Positions 11,258 to 43,049 of a DNA stretch of 64,000 nucleotides are shown piece by piece. The notes below the pieces were generated by a model. That model did not search any database. It was not told the origin of the DNA and worked only from the letters and a program-made list of their open reading frames with translations. A program made the position numbers and the translations under genes. Source of the DNA: an uncultured Actinomycetota bacterium (GTDB lineage: Bacteria; Actinomycetota; Actinomycetes; Mycobacteriales; Mycobacteriaceae); NCBI GenBank assembly GCA_963716505.1, contig CAVQTL010000015.1:104982-168981 (forward strand). Reading direction: 5' to 3'. How positions within the stretch are numbered: position 1 is the stretch's first letter; every line of letters begins with the position of its first letter.

Positions 11258-11950
11258 ATGAACGATCTGGTCGATACCACTGAGATGTATCTGCGGACCA
11301 TCTACGACCTCGAAGAAGAGGGCGTAGTGCCGCTGCGTGCGCGCATCGCCGAGCGTCTCGAGCAGAGCGGCCCGACCGTGAGCCAGACCGTCTCCCGGAT
11401 GGAGCGCGACGGCCTCCTGCACGTCGCCGGTGACCGGCACCTGGAACTGACCGACAAGGGCCGCGCCCTGGCCGTCGCCGTGATGCGCAAGCACCGGCTG
11501 GCCGAGCGGCTGCTGGTCGACGTCATCGGGCTGCCGTGGGAGGAAGTGCATGCCGAGGCGTGCCGCTGGGAGCATGTGATGAGCGAGGACGTCGAACGGC
11601 GCCTCGTCCAGGTGCTCGACAACCCGACGGTGTCACCGTTCGGCAATCCCATCCCCGGCCTGTCCGAGCTCGGTGTCGGCAACTGGATCGGCTCCGACGA
11701 CCGCAACCTCGTGCGGCTGACCGAGCTGCCAGCCGGCTTCCCGGTTGCCGTCGTAGTGCGCCAGCTGACCGAACACGTCCAGGGTGACGTCAACCTCATC
11801 GCCCGGCTCAAGGAAGCCGGTGTGGTTCCCAACGCACGGGTGACCGTCGAAACCGGCCCCAACGGCGGAGTGATGATCGTGATCCCGGGCCACGAGCAGG
11901 TCGAGCTGCCGCACGAGATGGCGCACGCCGTGAAGGTGGAAAAGGTCTAA
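11258..11950 (+). CDS. ideR: Iron-dependent repressor IdeR (DtxR family)
   Basis: MNDLVDTTEMYLRTIYDLEEEG, HRLAERLL, EACRWEHVMS, C-terminal SH3-like domain. Confidence 0.98.
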   Translation: MNDLVDTTEMYLRTIYDLEEEGVVPLRARIAERLEQSGPTVSQTVSRMERDGLLHVAGDRHLELTDKGRALAVAVMRKHRLAERLLVDVIGLPWEEVHAEACRWEHVMSEDVERRLVQVLDNPTVSPFGNPIPGLSELGVGNWIGSDDRNLVRLTELPAGFPVAVVVRQLTEHVQGDVNLIARLKEAGVVPNARVTVETGPNGGVMIVIPGHEQVELPHEMAHAVKVEKV

Positions 11951-11971
11951 AAGGCCTCAGCCGCAACGGAA

Positions 11972-12998
11972 CTAACCTGCCCGCCGTCCGAATTCCCGTC
12001 GTTTCGGCAACTGCAGGCCGAGCCGCTTTGCGAGCCGGTATCCCGTCGCCGCGAGCTCGCGAATCTGTTCGGGCCGCATCCCTGACTGCAGCGCTGTGTC
12101 GAGCATGCCCGCCATCCGGTGCGTGGCATCGCAGCGCAGCGCCGCCTCCAGTGACACCCCGGCCAACGGTCCGTCCCCGCGGGCGTAGGCGGAGAACGCC
12201 AACAACACCAGCGCCTCGACCCGCCACGGCGTGGGAAGCGCGCGGGACAGCCCCGCCCACAGCGCCTCGGCCTGCGCGGCCTTGTCCCCCACCGCCAGTG
12301 CGTAGAGCACGTCGCGCACCTGCGGATCGGTCAAGGCGTGCGCCAGCCTGGCCATCACGGTCGCCGGCAGCTCTCTCCCCGACGCCGCCCGCGCCGCCGC
12401 CGTCATCGCTTCCTCGACGGCACCCGCCGGGTCGACCTTCGCGTCGGCCTGGCTCGCGGATCACGCCGGCCAGGGCGTCGCTTGCGGCCGCATCGGTGAC
12501 CGCGATGACCTTCTGAAGCTCCTCGCGGCGGGCGTACAGCCGTCGGCCGTCCAGTACGGCCGCCATGGCCAGCGGCGACGCTGACGGGTCGTCCACCGTG
12601 CCCCAGCTGCCGTCCAGGCAGTGCCACCGCCCGTCCGGGCCAACCGTGTCGACGATGTGGAAGTCGAGCAGCTCGATCGCGTGGCCGGCAAGGCTGTCCT
12701 TGAGCGCACTGCGAAGATCCCAGTAGTCGTCATTGCACAGGCGACAGCCGGCGCCCTCGGCGTCGACGACGACCGCGATCGCGGCGTCCGGACCTGCCGC
12801 CGCGGCGACCTCGGCGACGTGGCCTACGGAGCCGAACAGCTCCGTCGAAAGGTCAACGCGCATCACGCAACCCAATTCTCCACGGTCGATGGTCACCAGA
12901 ACGAGGGACTTTTCGGGCACGAAGCCGAGAACGGCGGGCAGCGCCGCGATCAGCGCGCCGGGTCGGTTGAGCTGGAAGTCGGAATGCGATGTCGTCAT
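11972..12998 (-). CDS. DUF4192 family protein (Rv2712c-like), +1 frameshift at about 12451
   Basis: PGALIAALPAVLGFVP in the first frame and RDVLYALA...ARGDGPLAGVSL...HRMAGML in the next. Confidence 0.85.
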
Positions 12999-13093
12999 GC
13001 CACGACAATCGGTGCCTGCGCTGACCAGTGAGCGCCATAACCGCGCAGCCGCCATGGTGCTGTGGATGAACTCGCGACTGGGTATGAATGGCT

Positions 13094-13825
13094 CTAGCGC
13101 GGAATCAGTTGGCGCACCTTGAGCACCGCATCGGTGAACAGCGTGTCCAGCGCCTGGGTGTCGGGTGTGTCGTCCGACGACCCGTGCTGCTGCCACGACG
13201 CCGTCACCCGGACGTCGTCGACCAGGGCGACCAGCGTCAGCGTCCTGGTGTCCGGCTCATCGGGGGACTTCGCAGTGACGGTCTGGTCGACCGCGTAGGT
13301 GTCATCGGCGTCCACCGGCGGTGCCGGCGGCAGATCGACGGTCACCTCCGACACCTCGTCTGCGTCCCCGCCCGCCGTGCTGGTGAACGACGGGCAGTCG
13401 ATGAGCTGGGCGACCCTGGCGCGGACCGAGGGCACCGGCCGGGTGACCGTGACGATGAGGCGGCTACCGCTTTCGTCGTCGATTCCCTGCACGGCGGCTG
13501 ACTGCTCGGCCAGCGCCGGCAGCGGCGCACATTCGGGCGGCGTCACCTCGGATCCGGCCGGGACGCCGTCGATTTCGGCGAGCACGCGGTCGACGTCCTT
13601 CGGAGGTAGCGCGGCCGCCGGATACTGCGCGGGGAATCGTGTCGGGTCGATCAGCAAGTCAGCCACCGGAATCGGCCGGGCGGGCCGGACCTGTGGGTCA
13701 CCGCCGCGCGCGGTGCCGGTGACCACTTTCGCGCAGCCACCGACCAGTACCGCGACCGTCAGCACGGCGCAACCGACAGCGGGCAGCGTCGACCCGCGCA
13801 GAACCGTGCCCACCATGGTCGCCAT
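13094..13825 (-). CDS. Putative lipoprotein, unknown function
   Basis: Lipobox LVGG-C; VTPPEC...DCPSF Cys pair typical of mycobacterial sensor-like lipoproteins. Confidence 0.8.
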
Positions 13826-20321: not shown

Positions 20322-20344
20322 ACGATAGAACAGGGCACCGACAA
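20322..20344 (-). promoter_or_regulatory. RecA-NDp/PafBC-type promoter of chiZ
   Basis: Minus strand reads TTGTCGGTG-N8-TATCGT, matching TTGTCRGTG-N8-TAnnnT. Confidence 0.8.
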
Positions 20345-20388
20345 ATCTCGGCGACGTCCGTCCCGGTGCCAACAGATCGCGACACGCC

Positions 20389-20404
20389 TCGAACACATGT
20401 TTGA
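20389..20404. promoter_or_regulatory. LexA (SOS) box of lexA
   Basis: TCGAACACATGTTTGA about 30 bp upstream of the lexA ATG. Confidence 0.9.
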
Positions 20405-20436
20405 TTATCGAGGCTGCGGCGACTACATTCGGCGCC

Positions 20437-21151
20437 ATGAGCGAGGACCGCACCGGCACTCAGAACAGCGCAGCAGGCCCTGACCACACCGAGGACCGCC
20501 GCGGACCCGAAAGCCTGACCGAACGGCAGCGCACGATCCTGCAGGTCATTCGCGCCTCGGTGACGACTCGTGGGTATCCCCCGAGCATCAGAGAGATCGG
20601 TGACGCCGTCGGCCTGACGTCCACGTCGTCGGTCGCACATCAGCTGCGAACGCTGGAGCGAAAGGGCTACCTGCGCCGCGATCCGAACCGGCCCCGAGCG
20701 GTCGACGTACGCGGCGCCGACGAGATGGTGGCGCCGATCGTGGGCACCGATGTGGCGGGCTCCGATGCCCTGCCGGAGCCGACGTTCGTGCCCGGTGCTT
20801 GGCCGCATCGCAGCGGGCGGCCCGATCCTCGCCGAAGAGGCTGTCGAGGACGTCTTCCCGCTACCCCGCGAGCTGGTGGGCGAGGGGTCGCTGTTCCTGC
20901 TGAAAGTCGTCGGCGACTCGATGGTCGACGCGGCGATCTGCGACGGCGACTGGGTGGTGATTCGTCAGCAGAACGTCGCCGACAACGGCGATATCGTCGC
21001 GGCGATGATCGACGGCGAGGCCACGGTGAAGACGTTCAAGCGCACCCGCGGCCAGGTATGGCTGATGCCGCACAACCCGGCCTTCGATCCGATTCCCGGC
21101 AACGATGCCGCGGTGCTCGGCAAGGTCGTCACCGTGATCCGGAAGATCTGA
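20437..21151 (+). CDS. lexA: SOS repressor LexA, +1 frameshift at about 20792
   Basis: N-domain LTERQRTIL...[10 protein letters not shown]; peptidase domain [14 protein letters not shown] and ATVK in the next frame; extra C in GTGCCCGGTG; length 715 = 3n+1. Confidence 0.95.
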
Positions 21152-21158
21152 CCCGGCT

Positions 21159-23087
21159 CTAGTCGCCCTTGACGAAGCCGTTGGCGCGGGCGAATTGCTC
21201 GTTGACGAAGTAGACCTCGGCAGGAACGTGGTCGTAGAGGTCGCTTTCCGGTCCCCAGTACAGGCCTGACTTGGTGTCCGCCTTGATCGGGTAACCGGTC
21301 GGCGCCAGATATGGATCGTCGAGCGGTAGGTGAATGGCGGTCTGTGCCCCCTCGCCGTCACTGGGGCCGGCCTCACCGTCGGGTGCCACAACGGGTTCGG
21401 GCTCGTCGAGATCGGTCTGTGGTTCGTCGAGCTCAACAGCCGAGTGGCGGCTGGAGCCCGGGTCGGATTCGGACGGGATCGGCGTCGGCGCGGTGTCGGA
21501 CTCGTCGGCCTCGGGTTCGAGTTCGGAGAACTCGTCGCTGTCATCGCTTGTCTCCTCGAACGGATCTCGACCGACCCCGCCCAACCCGTACAGCGCGGAG
21601 CCCGACGGCCGACCGTAACTCTCGGCCAGCTGCACCCTGCCGTGGTCCTCAGAACCCTCCAGCCGCAGCGCCTCCGCCTCGGCTGCGGTGTCGTGGGTGG
21701 TGTCCAGATCGAACCCGTCGTCAAGCGGATCCACGTCGCCGCCACCCCGGTTCCGGAGCGTCGCAACCAGAATCAGCCCGATCAGAACCAGCAGCGGAAT
21801 CCCGGCGAGCAGCCACCACCATGACGGGGTGAACCAGTTGCGCTCCTTGGAGTCCGACGCAGCGGCGTTGGACGCATCCGGCGGTTCATAGCCGGGCACC
21901 GTCAGGCCGGACAGGCCGGAGGCCAGGTTGGCCGGCTGGGTGCTGAACTTGTTGGTCTGCTTGTCCCAGGAGATCTCGCCGCCGGTGAATCGCTGCGAGA
22001 CGACGTCTCCGTCCTCGGTCTGGTCGGCCACCGGAGGTCCAAGTGCACCGGCCGCGCCGCCGAGCTTGTCCCATGCCGCGTTCATGGCCCCGCGGACGAT
22101 GAATGCGCCGTAGTCGGGTGTCCAGAAGATGACCGGCTTGTCTTCTGCGGAGAAGGTGCTGACCCGGCTGCCCGTCTTGAGCCCGCCGTCGGTCTCGTTG
22201 CTGGTCGGCAGCCCCAGATCGCTCTGCACGCCGCCCACGGACTCGTACTTCTTGAGGACCTGCCCGCTGACCACGTTCGCGCCGGTGGCCGGGCTGTAGA
22301 AGATCTTGCCTCCGGCGAAATCCTGGCCCGCGCCGTCCTGGCCGATCGCGTACTGCGGACCCTGTTTGACCCCGAGCGGCCCCAGCGGCCCACCGGCGGC
22401 CCGCCTGGCCGCGTTGATCGCCGACGTGGCGTCTTCGGGAATGGTCAGCCCGCCGAGCTGCCCCGCCAGATCCGGCGGCACGGTGGTGAACTCCTTGGAG
22501 GACCGGTTCCAGGTGAGCTCGCCGCCGGTGAACTTCTGCGAGACGAGGTCGCCCTTGAAGATCTCGTCCTCGGTCGGCACCCCCACCGGCCCCGCTGAGC
22601 CGCCGAGCTTGTCCCACGCCGCGTTGATCGCACCGCGTACGACGTGGGCGCCGGTGTCGGGGGTCCAGAAGATGACGGGCTTGTCGACCGCGCTGAACGT
22701 GGTGTTGCGGCTGTCCTGCGCCCGACCCGGACCCTCGTCGATCGTCGGAAAGCCCAGGTCACCGTCGCCCGGCCCACCGAGTGACTCGTACTTCTGCAGG
22801 ATCGCGCCTGTCATGATGTGCGCGCCGGTGTCCGGGGTGAAAAAGATCTTGCCGCCCGCGTAGTTCTGGCCGAAGCCACCGCCGATCGGATAGAGGCCAC
22901 CGTCGCCCGGGCCCAGCGGACCGGTGGCGCCGCCGCCGGCGTCGTACGCCCTGTTGATCGCGTCGGCGGCATCGGATTCCGGGGTCGCCACCGCAGAGGG
23001 CGCCAGCACGAGGGCCACGGCGGCAGCCAACACAGCCGCGGCCGCGCGGCCGAATACGGAGTTCAGCAGGGCACGCTCCCCATTCAT
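21159..23087 (-). CDS. LGFP-repeat membrane protein (Rv2721c-like)
   Basis: Signal peptide, repeated GGxxGxLGxPT / IFWTPxxGA units, TM helix, acidic tail, C-terminal YPIKA...GLYW domain. Confidence 0.93.
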
Positions 23088-35429: not shown

Positions 35430-36249
35430 ATGCCGTCCATTTCAAAGCGCGTACTGGGTGCGCTCGCGCTGGCAGTCGCGTTGCCACTGGCGGCCACCGC
35501 CTGTGGCGGCGGAGGAGGTGGCGGCGACAGCGACACGATCGTCATCGGCACGAAGTTCGACCAGCCCGGTCTGGGGCTGAAGAACCCCGACGGGACGATG
35601 AGCGGTTTCGACGTCGACGTCGCGAAGTACGTCGCCAATGAACTCGGGTTCGCGGAGGACAAGATCGAGTGGAAGGAAGCGCCGTCGGCGCAGCGCGAGA
35701 CGCTGATCCAGAACGATCAGGTCAAGTTCATCGCGGCCACCTACTCGATCACCGACGCGCGCAAGGAGAAGGTCGATTTCGCCGGGCCGTACCTGATCAC
35801 CGGGACAGAGCCTGCTGGTACGCGCGGACAACACCGACATCACCGGCGAGGCGTCGCTGCAGAACAACAAGAAGCTGTGCTCGGTGTCGGGCTCGACACC
35901 TGCGCAACGCATCAAGGACAAGTTTGCGGGTGTCCAGCTGCAGCAGTACGACACGTACTCGGCCTGTGTCGAGGCCCTCAAGAACGGCGCGGTCGATGCG
36001 GTGACCACCGACGAGGTGATCCTGGCCGGCTACGCGGCGCAGACTCCGGGCGCGTTCAAGGTGGTCGGCGGGACCTTCTCGGAGGAGAAGTACGGAATCG
36101 GCCTGAAGAAGGGCGACACCGAGCTGCAGACCAAGATCAACGACGCCATCACCAAGATGGAGCAGGACGGAGCATGGAAGGCCGCGTTCGACAAGAACCT
36201 CGGGCCTGCAGGCATCACCGCGCCGGCGCCACCACCGCTCGACAAGTAA
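35430..36249 (+). CDS. gluB: Glutamate ABC transporter substrate-binding lipoprotein, +1 frameshift at about 35805
   Basis: Lipobox ATA-C; DQPGLG, GFDVDVA, ATYSIT..R; QSLLVR...CSVSGSTPA continues in the next frame; length 820 = 3n+1. Confidence 0.9.
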
Positions 36250-36265
36250 GCGGTCACCTGCCGAC

Positions 36266-37833: not shown

Positions 37834-37994
37834 CCCGTTGGATCTCGAGGGCATCGAACAGCAGTCCCACACCTACTGACACGACGAGCTGAACTGAGTT
37901 GAACCATCCGGGCCCTTGATTCGTGGCCCAAGTGGCTGGGTGCACTCAGTCACGCAGCCGATCGAATCACGGACACACTCACCGGGGAGTCGTC

Positions 37995-39149
37995 ATGAAT
38001 GTATCGGTCCGTTCGTATCTATCATCGGGCGTCGCAGCCGCCACAGCCACCGTCATCGTCGTGGCGCCCATGGAGGCGCAGACACCCGCCCGGCCCGAGG
38101 CGCCTCCGGTCGCACTCGCCGCACAAGTACAACCGCCACAACTGCCTGCGCTGATCGCCCAGCAGGTCTCTTTCAACACCGGCGTCGCCGTGGACTTCGT
38201 CGTGACCGGGGCGCAGTTGCTCGGTCGCCAAATCCAGGTTGGACAGGCGCTCATCGACGATGTCGGTAATGGCACACCGATTCCCGTCGCAGTCGGACGG
38301 GCGATCGCGGGATTCACGAACATCGAACTGGACGCCGGACGCGAACTCGTCGGCTTCGGCAGGGAGTTGGCGGAGTTCCAGATCCAGTTCTTCGGCAACC
38401 TAGTTTCCCAGCAACTGCCTGCGCTGCTCGCCCAGCAGGTCTCTTTCAACACCGGCGTCGCCGTGGACTTCGTCGTGACCGGGGCGCAGTTGCTCGGTCG
38501 CCAACTCCAGGTTGCAGAGGCGCTCGTCGATGATTTGGGCAATGGCACACCGATACCCGTCGCAGCCGGGCGGGCGGTCGCGGGATTCACGAACATCGAA
38601 CTGGACGCCGGCCGCGAACTCGTGGGCTTCGGCAGGGAGTTGGTGGACTTCCAGATCGAGTTCTTCGGCAACCTGGTTTCCCAGCGGCCTCCGGCCGTCG
38701 CGGCACCTGCGGAGCAGACCCGCGCAGTGAGCGCCGGTACGGTCGACGCCGTCGACGATGTGGCGAATGGCGCCATCGCCCGTCTGGCGCAGGTGGTGAA
38801 TATTCCAGTCGCGCAATCACAGTCACGTCAGACCTCGCGCACTGGGGCCTCTCCCCGAATGGACAACGTAGTGACACTCAGCCGTGAAAAGCCGAAAGCA
38901 ACCGCTGTGGATCGCGACTCGACGAGGACGGCGATGTCGAGTGCCAAGGACACCGTGCGGCGGGTCGCCCACGCGCTACGTGACGGAGTCCGGCGCAATG
39001 GCTCGCCGAGCGCGAGCGACACAGCCGACAGTCCGAATGCGAGCAGCCGGCATCAGCAGTCGCACTCCGACGTCAGCAGGAAGCTTCGACAGTTGCTCGT
39101 CCCGACTAGACCTTCCTGCGCTCGCGTTCGTTGGCCAATGCGACCTTGA
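37995..39149 (+). CDS. Secreted hypothetical protein with a duplicated 91-aa domain
   Basis: Leader [25 protein letters not shown]...VALAA typical of exported proteins in rapid growers; the 3' end overlaps recX, so the true stop is uncertain. Confidence 0.75.
38139..38684 (+). repeat. Tandem 273-bp internal duplication (2 copies)
   Basis: Copies start CAACTGCCTGCGCTG at 38139 and 38412; both encode [30 protein letters not shown]...FFGNLVSQ. Confidence 0.95.
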
Positions 39150-39636
39150 CGACGTCGAGCGCCATTGTCTGGCTGTAGCCGCGCCGGGCCAGCATGCCGA
39201 CCAGCCGCCGGGCCAGCTTGGCGTCGTCGTCGGTGAGCCGTTCGCGGCGCAGTTTGTCGTCGACCAGCTGCTCGGCGCGCTCCCGTTCGGCGCAGGCGTC
39301 GATATCGGCCAGCGCGGCGGTGATCACCTCGTTGTCGACGCCCCTGGTGCGGAGCTCGGCGGCCAAGGCGCGCTTGCCTTTTCCGGCGTTCACCCGACGC
39401 GACCGCACCCACTGCTCGGCGAAGTCGGCGTCGTCGACCAGGCCGACGGCGGTCAACCGGTCGAGTACCTGGGCGCTGACGTCGTCGGGGTAGCCGCGCT
39501 TGGTCAGCTGGCCGGCCAGCTCGGCACGGGTGCGGGCCCTCGCGGTGAGCAGGCGCAGGCAGAGCGCCCGCGCCTGCTCCTCGCGGGAGAGTTCAGCGGA
39601 CTTAGAAGTCAACGGGGGCGGGCAGGACTTCGTCAT
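39106..39636 (-). CDS. recX: RecA regulator RecX
   Basis: [35 protein letters not shown]; overlaps the recA 3' end by 35 bp. Confidence 0.95.
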
Positions 39637-42600
39637 CGGTCACCACTGCGCCAATGCCGAGCTTTTCCTTGATCTTCTTCTCGACCTCGTTGGCGATATC
39701 GACGTTTTCGATCAGGAAGGTGCGGGCGTTCTCCTTGCCCTGGCCCAGCTGCTCGCCCTCGTAGGTGAACCACGAACCGGACTTGCGGATGAAGCCCTGC
39801 TCGACACCCATGTCGATGAGCGAGCCTTCCTTGCTGATGCCCTTGCCATACAGGATGTCGAACTCGGCCTGTTTGAACGGGGGCGAGCAGTTGTGCACGA
39901 CAACCCCTTCCGCGACGAGGTTGTGCAGCTCCTCGACCTCGAGGTCGAACGTCCGTGCCCGCCGCGTTGGCAGCACTTCTCGGATCACCGAGTACCGGAG
40001 TTCCTCGGCCAACACATCACGCAAGAACTTGTCATCCAAGGCATCCGCGAGCGCCTGCACGCGATCCCGGCGGAGACGGCTGGCACCCAGAACCTGCTTC
40101 ATTCCACCACGAGGGTCCCCGGCACCTGCACCGATCATGGCCGCGGCTTCCTGTGCGGTCACGCCACGCTCGTCAAGGTAATTCAGCACGGCATCGGTCA
40201 TCTCAACGGCCAGATATGTCGCCTGCGATCCACGCCGTCGCCCCTGCATGGCTTCTGGAATCGCCTGGGTAAGAGCGATACCACGCGGCCCCCACATGGG
40301 AACCGCTTCCGCGAATGCCGTGACGTTCTCCATACCCGCGACCCGGACCTCGAATATCTGACGCTTGCTCTGGACCCGTCGGCCGTCGATGATGCTCGGC
40401 CGCTTCTGGGTCGGATCGTAGTCTCGAACGGTGCTCACGATGCCGAATCGCAGTAGCAGCCAATGGATCTGGTGTGCGAGCTGTTCAGAGGTCGTTGTGA
40501 AACCGAGCCGAAGCGCCCCGGTTTGTTCCCGGCTCACCCAGCCGTCACTCTCGAGCAGGCCGAAGAGCAGATTGCCGACAACATCGGGAGCGATATCTGG
40601 CTCGAAGAACCAGTTCGGAATCGTCTTCTCCCACGCGAGCTTGCCGTGAATACCGGCCTGCCGGCAAAGGTCGAGAACACCGTTGCGCTCACCAGGTCGA
40701 TGAGCGATCGCAATCGACATACGCCCCTGCGGATGGGCCGCACACCCGAGGGTCGCAGCGATTCGCGTCACGTCATCGATGAGTGCCTGCTGAACATTGA
40801 TGAAGTTGACCGGCGTCTTTCCTCCCACGTAGCCATCGCCTGATCAGATAGCCGAGCAGCCGGGCATGATCCGCGGAAATCGGCGCACTGTCACCGAATC
40901 CATCGAAGCGCCGCGGTTGCGCCACCCGGTCGCCCTTGCGGAGTTCCCCGGCCTGGCGCCAGCCGTACTCTGTCAGCACCTTGTGATCGGGTGTCGCCCA
41001 CACGGTTGCGCCACCGGCGATCCGCAACCCGATCACATCCTGCGTTCCCTGGTCGAACCAGGACACCACGGGCCGTGCATGCAGCGTTCCGTCCTTGGCC
41101 GCAGCCACGGCGTGAATTTGCTTCCGCCCATCGACGACATCCTCAATGCGATGCGTCATACCGGTGACCGGATCGAAGATCCGAGTGCCCTCTGCGAGGC
41201 ACTTGTTCTTGACGACCTTGACCCGGGTACGGTTGCCCACCGCGTCGGTGCCGTCCTTGAGACGTTTCAATTCGCCTGACATCCAAGCGAACTGAGGCGT
41301 AGAACTTCAAAGCCTTTCCGCCCGTTGTTGTTTCGGGCGAGTTATGCACCATAATGCCGTCAGCGAAGTAGTTGTGTGAGCCCTCGACTTCGATATCGAA
41401 TCGATTCATCGACCGAGTGTGCGGCTTAACGTGAACATCGAGCGACCCGCGCCGGCACCAAACGCTGCGTCGGTTCAACGAACTGCGGCGTAACCGATCC
41501 CTGGCCACGGAACCGCGGCAGCAGCTTGTAATCCATTGACGGCGCCATGTACGGCGCAACTATCTCCTGGAACTTCGCCGAGGCATGCGGTTGAGAACAC
41601 CAGCACTGACTTTCCGGCAGCACCTGACTGGCGCAACCGCACATCCAGACCATGGGTATCGCGCAGATAGTCACGCAGCCGCACTCGCGATCCTTCACTC
41701 ATTGCTTCCAGGCAGATCTCGATGCGGCCACTGCCACCCTCTGTGCGCTGCTGCAACCCCTTGGACCGCACGGTGAATGACCCGTCGTCCATGTACCAGA
41801 TGGCCAGAGCCAACGGGGTGAGCGCTTTCAGGTATTCCTCGGAGAGGAACTTCTTGCCGTCACCGAGGTACATCGCACGCTGCAATTCGGCAAGTTCTGG
41901 CAGCGGAGTGAAGTCGACAAACCTTGCGCCTTTTGCGTTTTCGCGGACTGAGTGCTTGATGTTGTCCATCAGTGCTGTTTTCCACTCCAGATATTCGGTC
42001 TGCTTGGCACCGTGTCCCAGCCGGAAACGCACACCGTTGCGGTCGCGACGATTGGGCGACAGGTTCCCGTCACCCATCAGCGAGCCGAGCACCACCTGGA
42101 ACTGCTGATCGCTGAGACGGTGCGGTTCAGCGGCCAACACCCGATCGCCGGCGATCAAGTCGCCGGCCTCGGTCCAGCCGGCCGGGGTGCGGATGAGATG
42201 GTTGGGGGTCGCGGCGAACTGCGACTTGCCGTTACCGCCAGACTTCTCAACCGTGAACTGCAGGAACTGTTTCGCGGGCCCGTTGTTGAACCAGTTCACC
42301 ACCTTGCGGGGAACGATCTGGTCGGTCGCCGGGTCATAGGACAGCACCTCGACGTCCATCTTTTGATTGACAATCTTGCCGATCTTCTCGGTGGTGCCGT
42401 CGGCCAACTGGACGCGAGTGGTGTAACTCACACATCCGAACATGACTCCGATTTTTTCGCGAAGCTGGTTGATGAAGATCGCGGTGGTGCCCGAATTGCT
42501 CAGCGCGCCAGTGATTTTCCGCAGTGCCTGGCTCATCAGCCGGGCCTGCAGGCCGACGTGGCTGTCGCCCATTTCACCCTCGATCTCCGCACGCGGCACC

Positions 42601-43049
42601 AACGCGGCGACCGAGTCGATGACCAGGATGTCCAGCGCGCCGGACCGGATCAGCATGTCGGCGATCTCCAGCGCCTGCTCGCCCGTGTCGGGCTGCGATA
42701 CCAGCAGCGAGTCGGTGTCCACGCCGAGCTTCTTGGCGTACTCCGGGTCCAGCGCGTGCTCGGCGTCGATGAACGCCGCGATGCCGCCGGCCGCCTGTGC
42801 GTTGGCCACCGCGTGCAGCGCGACGGTGGTCTTACCGGAGGACTCCGGGCCGTAGATCTCGACCACCCGGCCGCGCGGCAGCCCGCCGAGCCCGAGCGCG
42901 ACGTCCAGCGCGATCGAGCCGGTGGGGATGACGGAGATCGGCTGGCGCACCTCGTCACCGAGCCGCATCACCGAACCTTTGCCGTGGTTCTTCTCAATCT
43001 GCGCGAGCGCCAGCTCGAGGGCTTTCTCGCGATCAGGGGCCTGCGACAT
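39602..43049 (-). CDS. recA: Recombinase RecA precursor with two inteins; four +1 frameshifts (about 41585, 41444, 41262, 40841)
   Basis: Exteins are 205 aa (43049-42435, GPESSGKTT), 46 aa (41340-41202, SPETTTGG...KNK) and 95 aa (39889-39605, [10 protein letters not shown]...PVDF), totalling 346 aa. Stitched from five track ORFs, each shifted by +1. Confidence 0.96.
39890..41201 (-). mobile_element. RecA intein at the K251 site (M. tuberculosis type), LAGLIDADG homing endonuclease, 437 aa
   Basis: Starts [14 protein letters not shown] after KNK; block B TPDH; LLGYLIGDG and [10 protein letters not shown]; ends TFDLEV...VVHN followed by Cys; 1312 nt = 437 codons + 1. Confidence 0.95.
41341..42434 (-). 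mobile_element. RecA intein at the G205 site (M. leprae type), LAGLIDADG homing endonuclease, 364 aa
   Basis: Starts [13 protein letters not shown] after VMFG; block B TPNH; LGSLMGDG and LAIWYMDDG; ends FDIEV...MVHN followed by Ser; 1094 nt = 364 codons + 2. Confidence 0.95.

Follow-up and report, generated by a model that had tools for sequence, protein, structure and literature searches.

The locus examined here raises the question of how an intein closely resembling the one in the RecA protein of Mycobacterium tuberculosis came to reside in the recA gene of what appears to be an environmental mycobacterium. The gene lies in a 64,000-nucleotide (nt) stretch of contig CAVQTL010000015.1 (assembly GCA_963716505.1, positions 104,982 to 168,981), hereafter the window, from an uncultured member of the Mycobacteriaceae. 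An initial annotation, made from the letters of this DNA, had reported the intein and proposed that it moved by horizontal homing between distant mycobacterial lineages, possibly pointing to an environmental source of the tuberculosis (TB) intein. We consider another reading probable: that an environmental Mycobacterium here carries two mobile inteins in its recA gene, that the copy shared with M. tuberculosis, at the insertion site denoted a, is ordinary, old and mostly inherited with its host, and that the single-base insertions interrupting the gene as assembled are most probably consensus errors. The presence of a site-a intein in the window genome is, by itself, ordinary.

Two inteins in one recA gene

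The recA gene is assembled in five reading-frame pieces, and once four extra bases are ignored it encodes a precursor of 1147 amino acids (aa), with the following parts:

39602..43049, minus strand: recA, encoding the two-intein RecA precursor (ATG at 43049, stop codon at 39602-39604; from the list of open reading frames (ORFs) and three-frame translation)
42435..43049, minus strand: RecA N-extein, residues 1-205 (MSQAP...GVMFG)
41341..42434, minus strand: intein 1 at RecA site b, 364 aa (CVSYTT...GIMVHN, then Ser+1)
41202..41340, minus strand: middle extein, 46 aa (SPETTTGG...RVKVVKNK), with one extra base inside
39890..41201, minus strand: intein 2 at RecA site a, 437 aa (CLAEGT...VVVHN, then Cys+1), of the PI-MtuI family, with one extra base inside
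39602..39889, minus strand: RecA C-extein, 95 aa (...PAPVDF), with the stop codon at 39602-39604

Pfam identifies RecA, LAGLIDADG_2, Intein_splicing, LAGLIDADG_3 and RecA_C on the repaired product. The N-extein is 93-99% identical to those of mycobacterial relatives, and the spliced extein is identical to M. tuberculosis RecA (PDB 4po1) at 317 of 346 positions (91.6%). The M. tuberculosis extein sequence used for this comparison matches PDB 4po1 at 350/350 positions.

The interval that had been given for intein 2 is exact to the base and lies on the minus strand, which had been left unstated; both quoted ends of its translation are present. The Cys1 codon (tgc) starts at 41201, the terminal Asn codon ends at 39890 and Cys+1 comes next (VVKNK/C...VVVHN/CSPPFKQ, with slashes at the splice junctions). 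The interval spans 1312 nt, not 1311, and its reading frame is discontinuous as assembled. The 437-aa translation containing GDGYVGG can indeed be obtained, but only when an extra base at ~40841 is skipped, a frameshift that the initial annotation had passed over. As assembled, intein 2 is thus out of continuous frame with its host gene, with this one extra base inside and three more upstream in recA.

A phmmer search against the PDB returned Endonuclease PI-MtuI (2imz/2in9) as the best match among solved structures (E=9.9e-93). Identical residues number 103 of 110 in the N-terminal and 55 of 58 in the C-terminal part of the splicing domain (158/168, 94.0%), and by these alignments the similarity of intein 2 to the RecA intein of M. 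tuberculosis goes far beyond chance. The element lies between RVKVVKNK and CSPPF, at residue 252 in the numbering without intein 1, and this insertion point agrees with the splice junction of M. tuberculosis RecA in PDB 4po1. The original identification as an M. tuberculosis-type RecA intein at site a is therefore borne out, and so is the length of 440 aa that it had set against the 437 aa seen here: the RecA intein of the M. tuberculosis complex occupies site a, residues 252-691, with 440 aa (Topilina 2015, Table 1, PMC4513877). All class 1 splicing residues are present in intein 2, namely Cys1 (CLAEG), the block B TxxH motif (TPDHKV), the terminal His-Asn (VVVHN) and Cys+1. The endonuclease domain matches Pfam LAGLIDADG_3 (E=2.8e-17) and contains two LAGLIDADG motifs, the first being LLGYLIGDG. 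We take the 3-aa length difference from the M. tuberculosis intein to lie here, as GDGYVGG versus GDGRDGWVGG, in a region that is missing from the PDB constructs. Among 37 mycobacterial site-a sequences, the splicing residues are kept in 34-35 and the aspartates of the LAGLIDADG motifs in 32. On sequence, intein 2 is an ordinary member of the PI-MtuI family.

The initial annotation mentioned neither the second intein, at site b, nor the frameshifts in the recA, lexA, DUF4192 and solute-binding-protein genes. Intein 1 follows Gly205 (MFG/CVSYTT...GIMVHN/SPETTTGG), with Cys1, TPNH, a terminal HN and Ser+1, contains two extra bases, and has an endonuclease domain matching Pfam LAGLIDADG_2 (E=5.7e-40). 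In site and size, it corresponds to the site b (206-569) inteins of M. xenopi and JDM601 (Topilina 2015, PMC4513877), and relatives at site b are found in at least 576 species genomes. The third-position difference between intein 1 and its counterpart in L005 is 0.35 (L001, L005 and similar labels denote recA loci of relatives compared with the window), and by sequence divergence intein 1 is older than its surroundings.

Because the catalytic residues are conserved and homology to PI-MtuI is evident, we infer splicing and homing for these elements. The recA gene, with two mobile inteins inserted in frame, each having a LAGLIDADG homing-endonuclease domain, would be translated as one chain. Each intein would excise itself with the help of its Cys1, block-B TxxH and terminal His-Asn residues together with the following Ser+1 or Cys+1, joining the exteins into a RecA protein of ~346 aa. 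The endonucleases would cut intein-free recA alleles, and repair would copy the intein in. Protein splicing and DNA cleavage by the window inteins are accordingly predicted activities.

Distribution and descent of the site-a intein

The view that this intein is characteristic of the M. tuberculosis complex, on which the initial annotation relied, matched the literature to 2015, when the site-a entries of a survey were confined to the M. tuberculosis complex and M. canettii (Topilina 2015, Table 1, PMC4513877). It is now outdated: two scans of contigs representing one genome per species recovered relatives inserted at this very position of recA in 111 and 100 genomes, respectively. The open-access literature yielded no paper on the site-a intein beyond the M. 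tuberculosis complex and M. canettii or on its present distribution. Within Mycobacterium, it is found in ~40 species and metagenome-assembled genomes (MAGs), slow and rapid growers included: the named species M. pinniadriaticum, M. celatum, M. kyorinense, [M.] zoologicum and M. uberis, together with Candidatus (Ca.) M. methanotrophicum, M. sp. GA-1285, M. sp. SM1 and ~30 MAGs. Beyond Mycobacterium, carriers belong to Haloechinothrix, Micromonospora, Plantactinospora, Pseudonocardiaceae, Frankiaceae, Nocardioidaceae and Acidimicrobiia. A length of 437 aa is shared by nearly all copies in mycobacteria, and the 440 aa of the M. tuberculosis complex is the exception. At least 16 species have a double-intein recA with sites b and a both occupied, for example Ca. 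M. methanotrophicum, Haloechinothrix alba and Plantactinospora; the loci with both sites filled, as in the window, include L005, L017, L019, L022, L023, L025, L035 and L044.

Identity to the M. tuberculosis splicing domain is 84-95% in Mycobacterium, 79% in Haloechinothrix, ~70% in Micromonosporaceae, ~64% in Pseudonocardiaceae and 52-58% in Acidimicrobiia. Since intein identity follows host taxonomy at this broad scale, the element would be old and mainly vertically inherited. Synonymous divergence (dS) within the genus was estimated as NG86 distances for 37 mycobacterial sequences (666 pairs), giving median values of 0.594 for the intein and 0.599 for the extein (Spearman 0.43), with a 5-95% range of the intein/extein ratio of 0.42-1.78. 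Intein dS also correlates with host distance (rho 0.40-0.48; the value is 0.40 when host distance is taken as the nonsynonymous divergence (dN) of recX). The initial annotation had named intein divergence proportional to that of the extein as an outcome that would speak against transfer, and on average this is what we found. Taken together, these distances point to an old, largely vertically inherited site-a element. Ungapped dS values for non-mycobacterial loci were left aside, having proved to be alignment artefacts.

Descent has not been vertical throughout, which qualifies the reading that we favor; the balance between vertical and horizontal inheritance was assessed by simple NG86 distances and neighbor-joining (NJ) trees. 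Against the 12 MAGs with the nearest inteins, window dS is 0.16-0.30 for the intein, 0.29-0.67 for the extein and 0.4-0.9 for flanking genes. Third-position differences from relatives are 0.08-0.15 over the first 330 nt of the intein and 0.15-0.39 in the exteins. In addition, L016, L011 and L018 come from hosts that are distant by recX, with inteins as close to that of the window as the inteins of near hosts. Because the dS of extein and flanks exceeds that of the intein two- to threefold for about a dozen MAGs, some horizontal exchange of the intein within Mycobacterium is likely. The ratio dN/dS across mycobacterial site-a inteins is 0.10 for the N-splicing part, 0.12 for the endonuclease and 0.11 for the C-splicing part; the endonuclease domain is thus under purifying selection as strong as that on the splicing parts, which fits an element still depending on homing. 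The site-a intein would be old in Actinomycetota, passed on mostly along with its host and now and then exchanged between species of Mycobacterium.

Whether such exchange links this lineage to M. tuberculosis in particular is a separate matter. The proposal of a specific, fairly recent homing event connecting the saprophyte lineage and the M. tuberculosis complex, with an organism of this kind as the environmental source of the TB intein, draws on a real asymmetry: relative to M. tuberculosis, the splicing domain of the window intein is 94.0% identical and the extein 91.6%, that is, protein divergence is 6.0% in the splicing domain and 8.2-8.4% in the extein, a ratio of 0.73. The corresponding median is 1.18 for all M. 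tuberculosis pairs and 1.66 for other mycobacterial pairs. The M. tuberculosis extein is the most divergent of the set, its intein is not, and some exchange within the genus is likely. Furthermore, the distribution of the site-a intein is patchy, because close named relatives of the M. tuberculosis complex were not among the site-a matches in the two genome scans. The divergence ratios provide mild evidence that the copy in the M. tuberculosis complex postdates the split of its host, or else that the M. tuberculosis extein evolves faster. The comparison with M. tuberculosis was made at the protein level and covers 168 of 440 intein residues, and this too limits our reading. The collections scanned evidently do not include the complex: a degenerate DNA pattern for the M. 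tuberculosis GDGRDGWVGGKT segment had no match among the genome contigs, a genome scan with the PDB-verified N-terminal 110 aa gave no match above 95%, and the protein database yielded no M. tuberculosis entry.

However, the closeness is not specific to the window. Over the 168 aa of the splicing domain, the window differs from M. tuberculosis at 10 positions, L001 at 9, L022 and L078 at 10 each, and M. celatum, M. kyorinense and M. pinniadriaticum at 11 each, and in the NJ tree the M. tuberculosis intein falls inside a star-like mycobacterial cluster in which it does not pair with the window. On this evidence the window is not tied to M. tuberculosis in any special way, being one of about ten equally close species, and the M. 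tuberculosis complex contributes one leaf to the mycobacterial site-a cluster. A protein divergence of 6% in the most conserved part of an intein is not recent, and the genus-average intein dS equals that of the extein. The phage and plasmid collections contained no copy that could act as a vector, only distant inteins of at most 27% identity in other genes. We therefore regard a specific recent link as improbable; of the horizontal homing originally proposed, exchange within the genus remains likely, given the low intein dS against the 12 MAGs, whereas the particular connection to M. tuberculosis does not emerge from the star-like tree.

An assembly chimera, in which M. tuberculosis-like reads were merged into the contig of a saprophyte, had been raised as an alternative from the start, and nothing speaks for it other than the resemblance itself. 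It is refuted by the 94%, not ~100%, identity to PI-MtuI, by the length of 437 aa as in the mycobacterial copies outside the tuberculosis complex and not 440, by the contiguity of the intein with saprophyte-type flanks, by its colinearity with exteins and flanks in L005, L001 and L027, and by the soil MAGs that are the nearest DNA relatives of the intein; we assign it a negligible probability.

Several degenerate relatives of the element were seen along the way. L237 (JGI 3300082054, a 2321-nt contig) carries a natural mini-intein at site a from which the whole endonuclease domain is gone (...GDSAPISA/IPEATQ...), resembling engineered laboratory versions, and shortened natural site-a inteins are present in L044 (387 aa), L061 (386 aa) and L042 (395 aa). 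P0119/L237 had first seemed almost identical to the window (98% across 25% of the query), but was dropped as such because its DNA is 88-92% identical. Four soil metagenome runs yielded recA contigs that join across 39880/41202 and 41334/42435, that is, intein-free alleles, and the depth over recA exteins in these soils is 10-100x that over inteins. Given this depth difference and the intein-free joints, occupied and empty recA sites appear to coexist in the same soils.

Extra bases in recA and three other genes

As assembled, recA contains four +1 insertions within 748 bp:

41584..41586, minus strand: frameshift 1, 1-nt insertion in intein 1 (accgcATgcc, one base more than in relatives), from alignments to L005, L019, L155, L156 and L237
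41443..41445, minus strand: frameshift 2, 1-nt insertion in intein 1 (cgggtCGctcga), from alignments to relatives
41262..41263, minus strand: frameshift 3, 1-nt insertion in the middle extein (gaaacgTctcaag), from alignments to relatives
40838..40841, minus strand: frameshift 4, 1-nt insertion in intein 2 (ctgatcAggcgat), from alignments to relatives

Frameshift 4 is an extra A in ctgatcAggcgatggc, at ~40841, immediately ahead of the GDG in LAGLIDADG motif 1. The alignment with L005 extends over all 3446 nt at 90.2% identity, with gaps exactly at the four insertions. No relative that was aligned has the extra bases, and every soil-metagenome contig covering the sites of frameshifts 3 and 4 (41262 and 40838) lacks them. 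When the four bases are removed, recA becomes one open frame of 1147 aa free of stops. Three further genes of the window are disrupted in the same way:

20329-21162, plus strand: lexA, +1 insertion (ccc G gtg) at ~20793, with the DNA-binding and S24 peptidase domains in different frames
11808-13196, minus strand: DUF4192 gene, +1 insertion at ~12450, with Pfam profile positions 1-187 in one frame and 199-321 in the next
35430-36250, plus strand: gene of a glu-type solute-binding protein (SBP_bac_3), +1 insertion (ggg A cag) at ~35804, a base not present in L027, L001 and L006

Frame changes were nominated with a coding-frame hidden Markov model, which mislabels strands in places and was used for this purpose only, and were then checked by Pfam or alignment.

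In these four genes, the insertions most probably reflect errors in the consensus of a long-read metagenome assembly and not biology. This reading is suggested by several features in combination: all 7 frameshifts of the window run in the +1 direction; none of the extra bases in recA repeats a neighboring base or lies in a homopolymer run, unlike slippage; the relatives and metagenome contigs lack the bases; window-specific substitutions in recA are few (one nonsynonymous and three synonymous in the extein, two and two in intein 2), no more than in relatives with an intact gene; and similar private lesions are known from other assemblies. The latter are L155 (ENA ERZ25039531 contig_64612) and L156 (ERZ25039532 contig_16990), metagenome contigs with assembler-style 'contig_N' names and no sequencing platform on record. 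Each has a double-intein recA with a private +1 insertion in intein 1, and in each recA is called as two genes owing to that insertion.

Some observations weigh against an origin of the insertions in sequencing error. Four of the 7 frameshifts fall within the 748 bp around two intein junctions (P about 2e-4 under a uniform rate), so the uniform error model fails for the recA cluster and something local must be invoked; reads mixed in from relatives without one or the other of the inteins could cause such a cluster at the junctions. Both recA and lexA, which belong to the SOS system, are hit. Moreover, no reads of the window genome were found, the best public run holding 12% of the window words; the contigs from the four public runs are from relatives only, and three window proteins are not on record.

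The same facts can be turned into a different account, in which recA and lexA are real pseudogenes, the SOS and recombination system has been lost and the inteins decay with their host gene. The four frameshifts in recA and the one in lexA, their clustering far beyond a uniform rate, and the natural degenerate site-a inteins known elsewhere (L044, L061, L042 and L237) would agree with decay. However, once the four bases are taken out, there are no stop codons, deletions or surplus nonsynonymous changes, and four indels against about 8 lineage-specific substitutions would be an implausible ratio for natural decay. All seven events are insertions, those in recA unlike slippage mutations, and the same lesion affects unrelated genes (DUF4192 and the solute-binding protein) and is private to the two metagenome contigs described above. 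Pseudogenization is thus unlikely, though it deserves somewhat more weight than a recent link to M. tuberculosis. That all seven insertions are real, such that a free-living soil mycobacterium has recA inactivated by four hits and lexA by one and has lost SOS and homologous recombination, strikes us as very unlikely; if it were true, two recA inteins would have been caught at the first step of decay, after the loss of the host function that normally protects the element. Consensus error in an otherwise intact recA gene is the explanation with which we proceed.

Genomic setting and comparison with known inteins

The surroundings of recA fit a soil-type mycobacterium, and the saprophyte-type gene content noted in the initial annotation is confirmed by the NiFe hydrogenase small subunit and cobW/hypB gene upstream and the glu-type ATP-binding cassette (ABC) transporter and miaB downstream. 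Downstream of recA come recX, a 408-aa ORF, and then the transporter genes and miaB:

39106..39636, minus strand: recX, intact, with a 35-nt overlap with the end of recA (Pfam RecX_HTH1, RecX_HTH2, RecX_HTH3)
37923-39149, plus strand: 408-aa ORF between the glu operon and recX, with a two-fold internal repeat of ~90 aa
43370-47447, plus strand: cobW/hypB-like GTPase and NiFe hydrogenase small and large subunit genes, directly upstream of recA

The order hydrogenase-recA-recX-glu is common to the window and its nearest MAG relatives, and the nearest relatives by recA flanks are soil MAGs with DNA identity of 80-87%. On the hydrogenase side, L155 has the same arrangement and L001, L006, L015, L027 and L072 have part of it; the slow growers M. 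celatum and M. kyorinense do not have it. The 408-aa ORF has no match in a Pfam search, and its region of ~1.2 kb is mostly absent from the loci of relatives, except that 83 nt of it match L001. No RNA gene was found when the 64-kb window was scanned with Rfam and for tRNAs.

For the window itself, the finding has little weight, adding one more copy of a known intein family where inteins are expected. That the 'TB intein' is common in environmental actinobacteria is a lesson from public genomes and not from the window. It does have practical consequences. A recA-intein polymerase chain reaction (PCR) assay was still used in 2019 to separate tuberculosis-complex from non-tuberculous isolates (PMC6751674, citing Saves 2002). 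The site-a intein is weakened as a specific marker because ~40 species and MAGs of Mycobacterium, besides many further actinobacteria, are now seen to have it; among its carriers are M. celatum and M. kyorinense, which are clinically isolated. Anti-splicing compounds aimed at the site-a intein would hit environmental mycobacteria too. The collected sequences could also serve to examine whether the element came to the ancestor of the M. tuberculosis complex from such a pool.

Among known systems, the closest characterized counterpart of intein 2 is PI-MtuI (PDB 2IMZ, 2IN0, 2IN9, 3IFJ), which is likewise inserted after Lys251 of spliced RecA and before Cys+1, and has the same Cys1, TPDH, VVVHN and Cys+1 as well as two LAGLIDADG motifs with their aspartates. 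The two differ in length (440 versus 437 aa), in the host, here a soil-type mycobacterium with hydrogenase and glu neighbors, and in that the window copy shares recA with a second intein and, as assembled, carries a 1-nt insertion in LAGLIDADG motif 1. The site-a inteins of M. celatum, M. kyorinense, M. pinniadriaticum and ~30 Mycobacterium MAGs are alike in site, length of 437 aa and motifs, with 86-95% protein identity, but these genomes mostly carry site a alone, whereas the window has site b too. Intein 1 has its counterparts in the site-b RecA inteins of the M. leprae, M. flavescens, M. shimoidei and M. xenopi type, which share its site, Ser+1 and LAGLIDADG_2 domain; those of M. flavescens, M. 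shimoidei, M. rhodesiae JS60 and others are 84-93% identical to it, and the difference lies in the two 1-nt insertions of the window copy. Finally, the RecA of Thermobifida fusca (Topilina 2015, PMC4513877) resembles that of the window in having two inteins in one recA, although there the occupied sites are b and c2, and in the window b and a.

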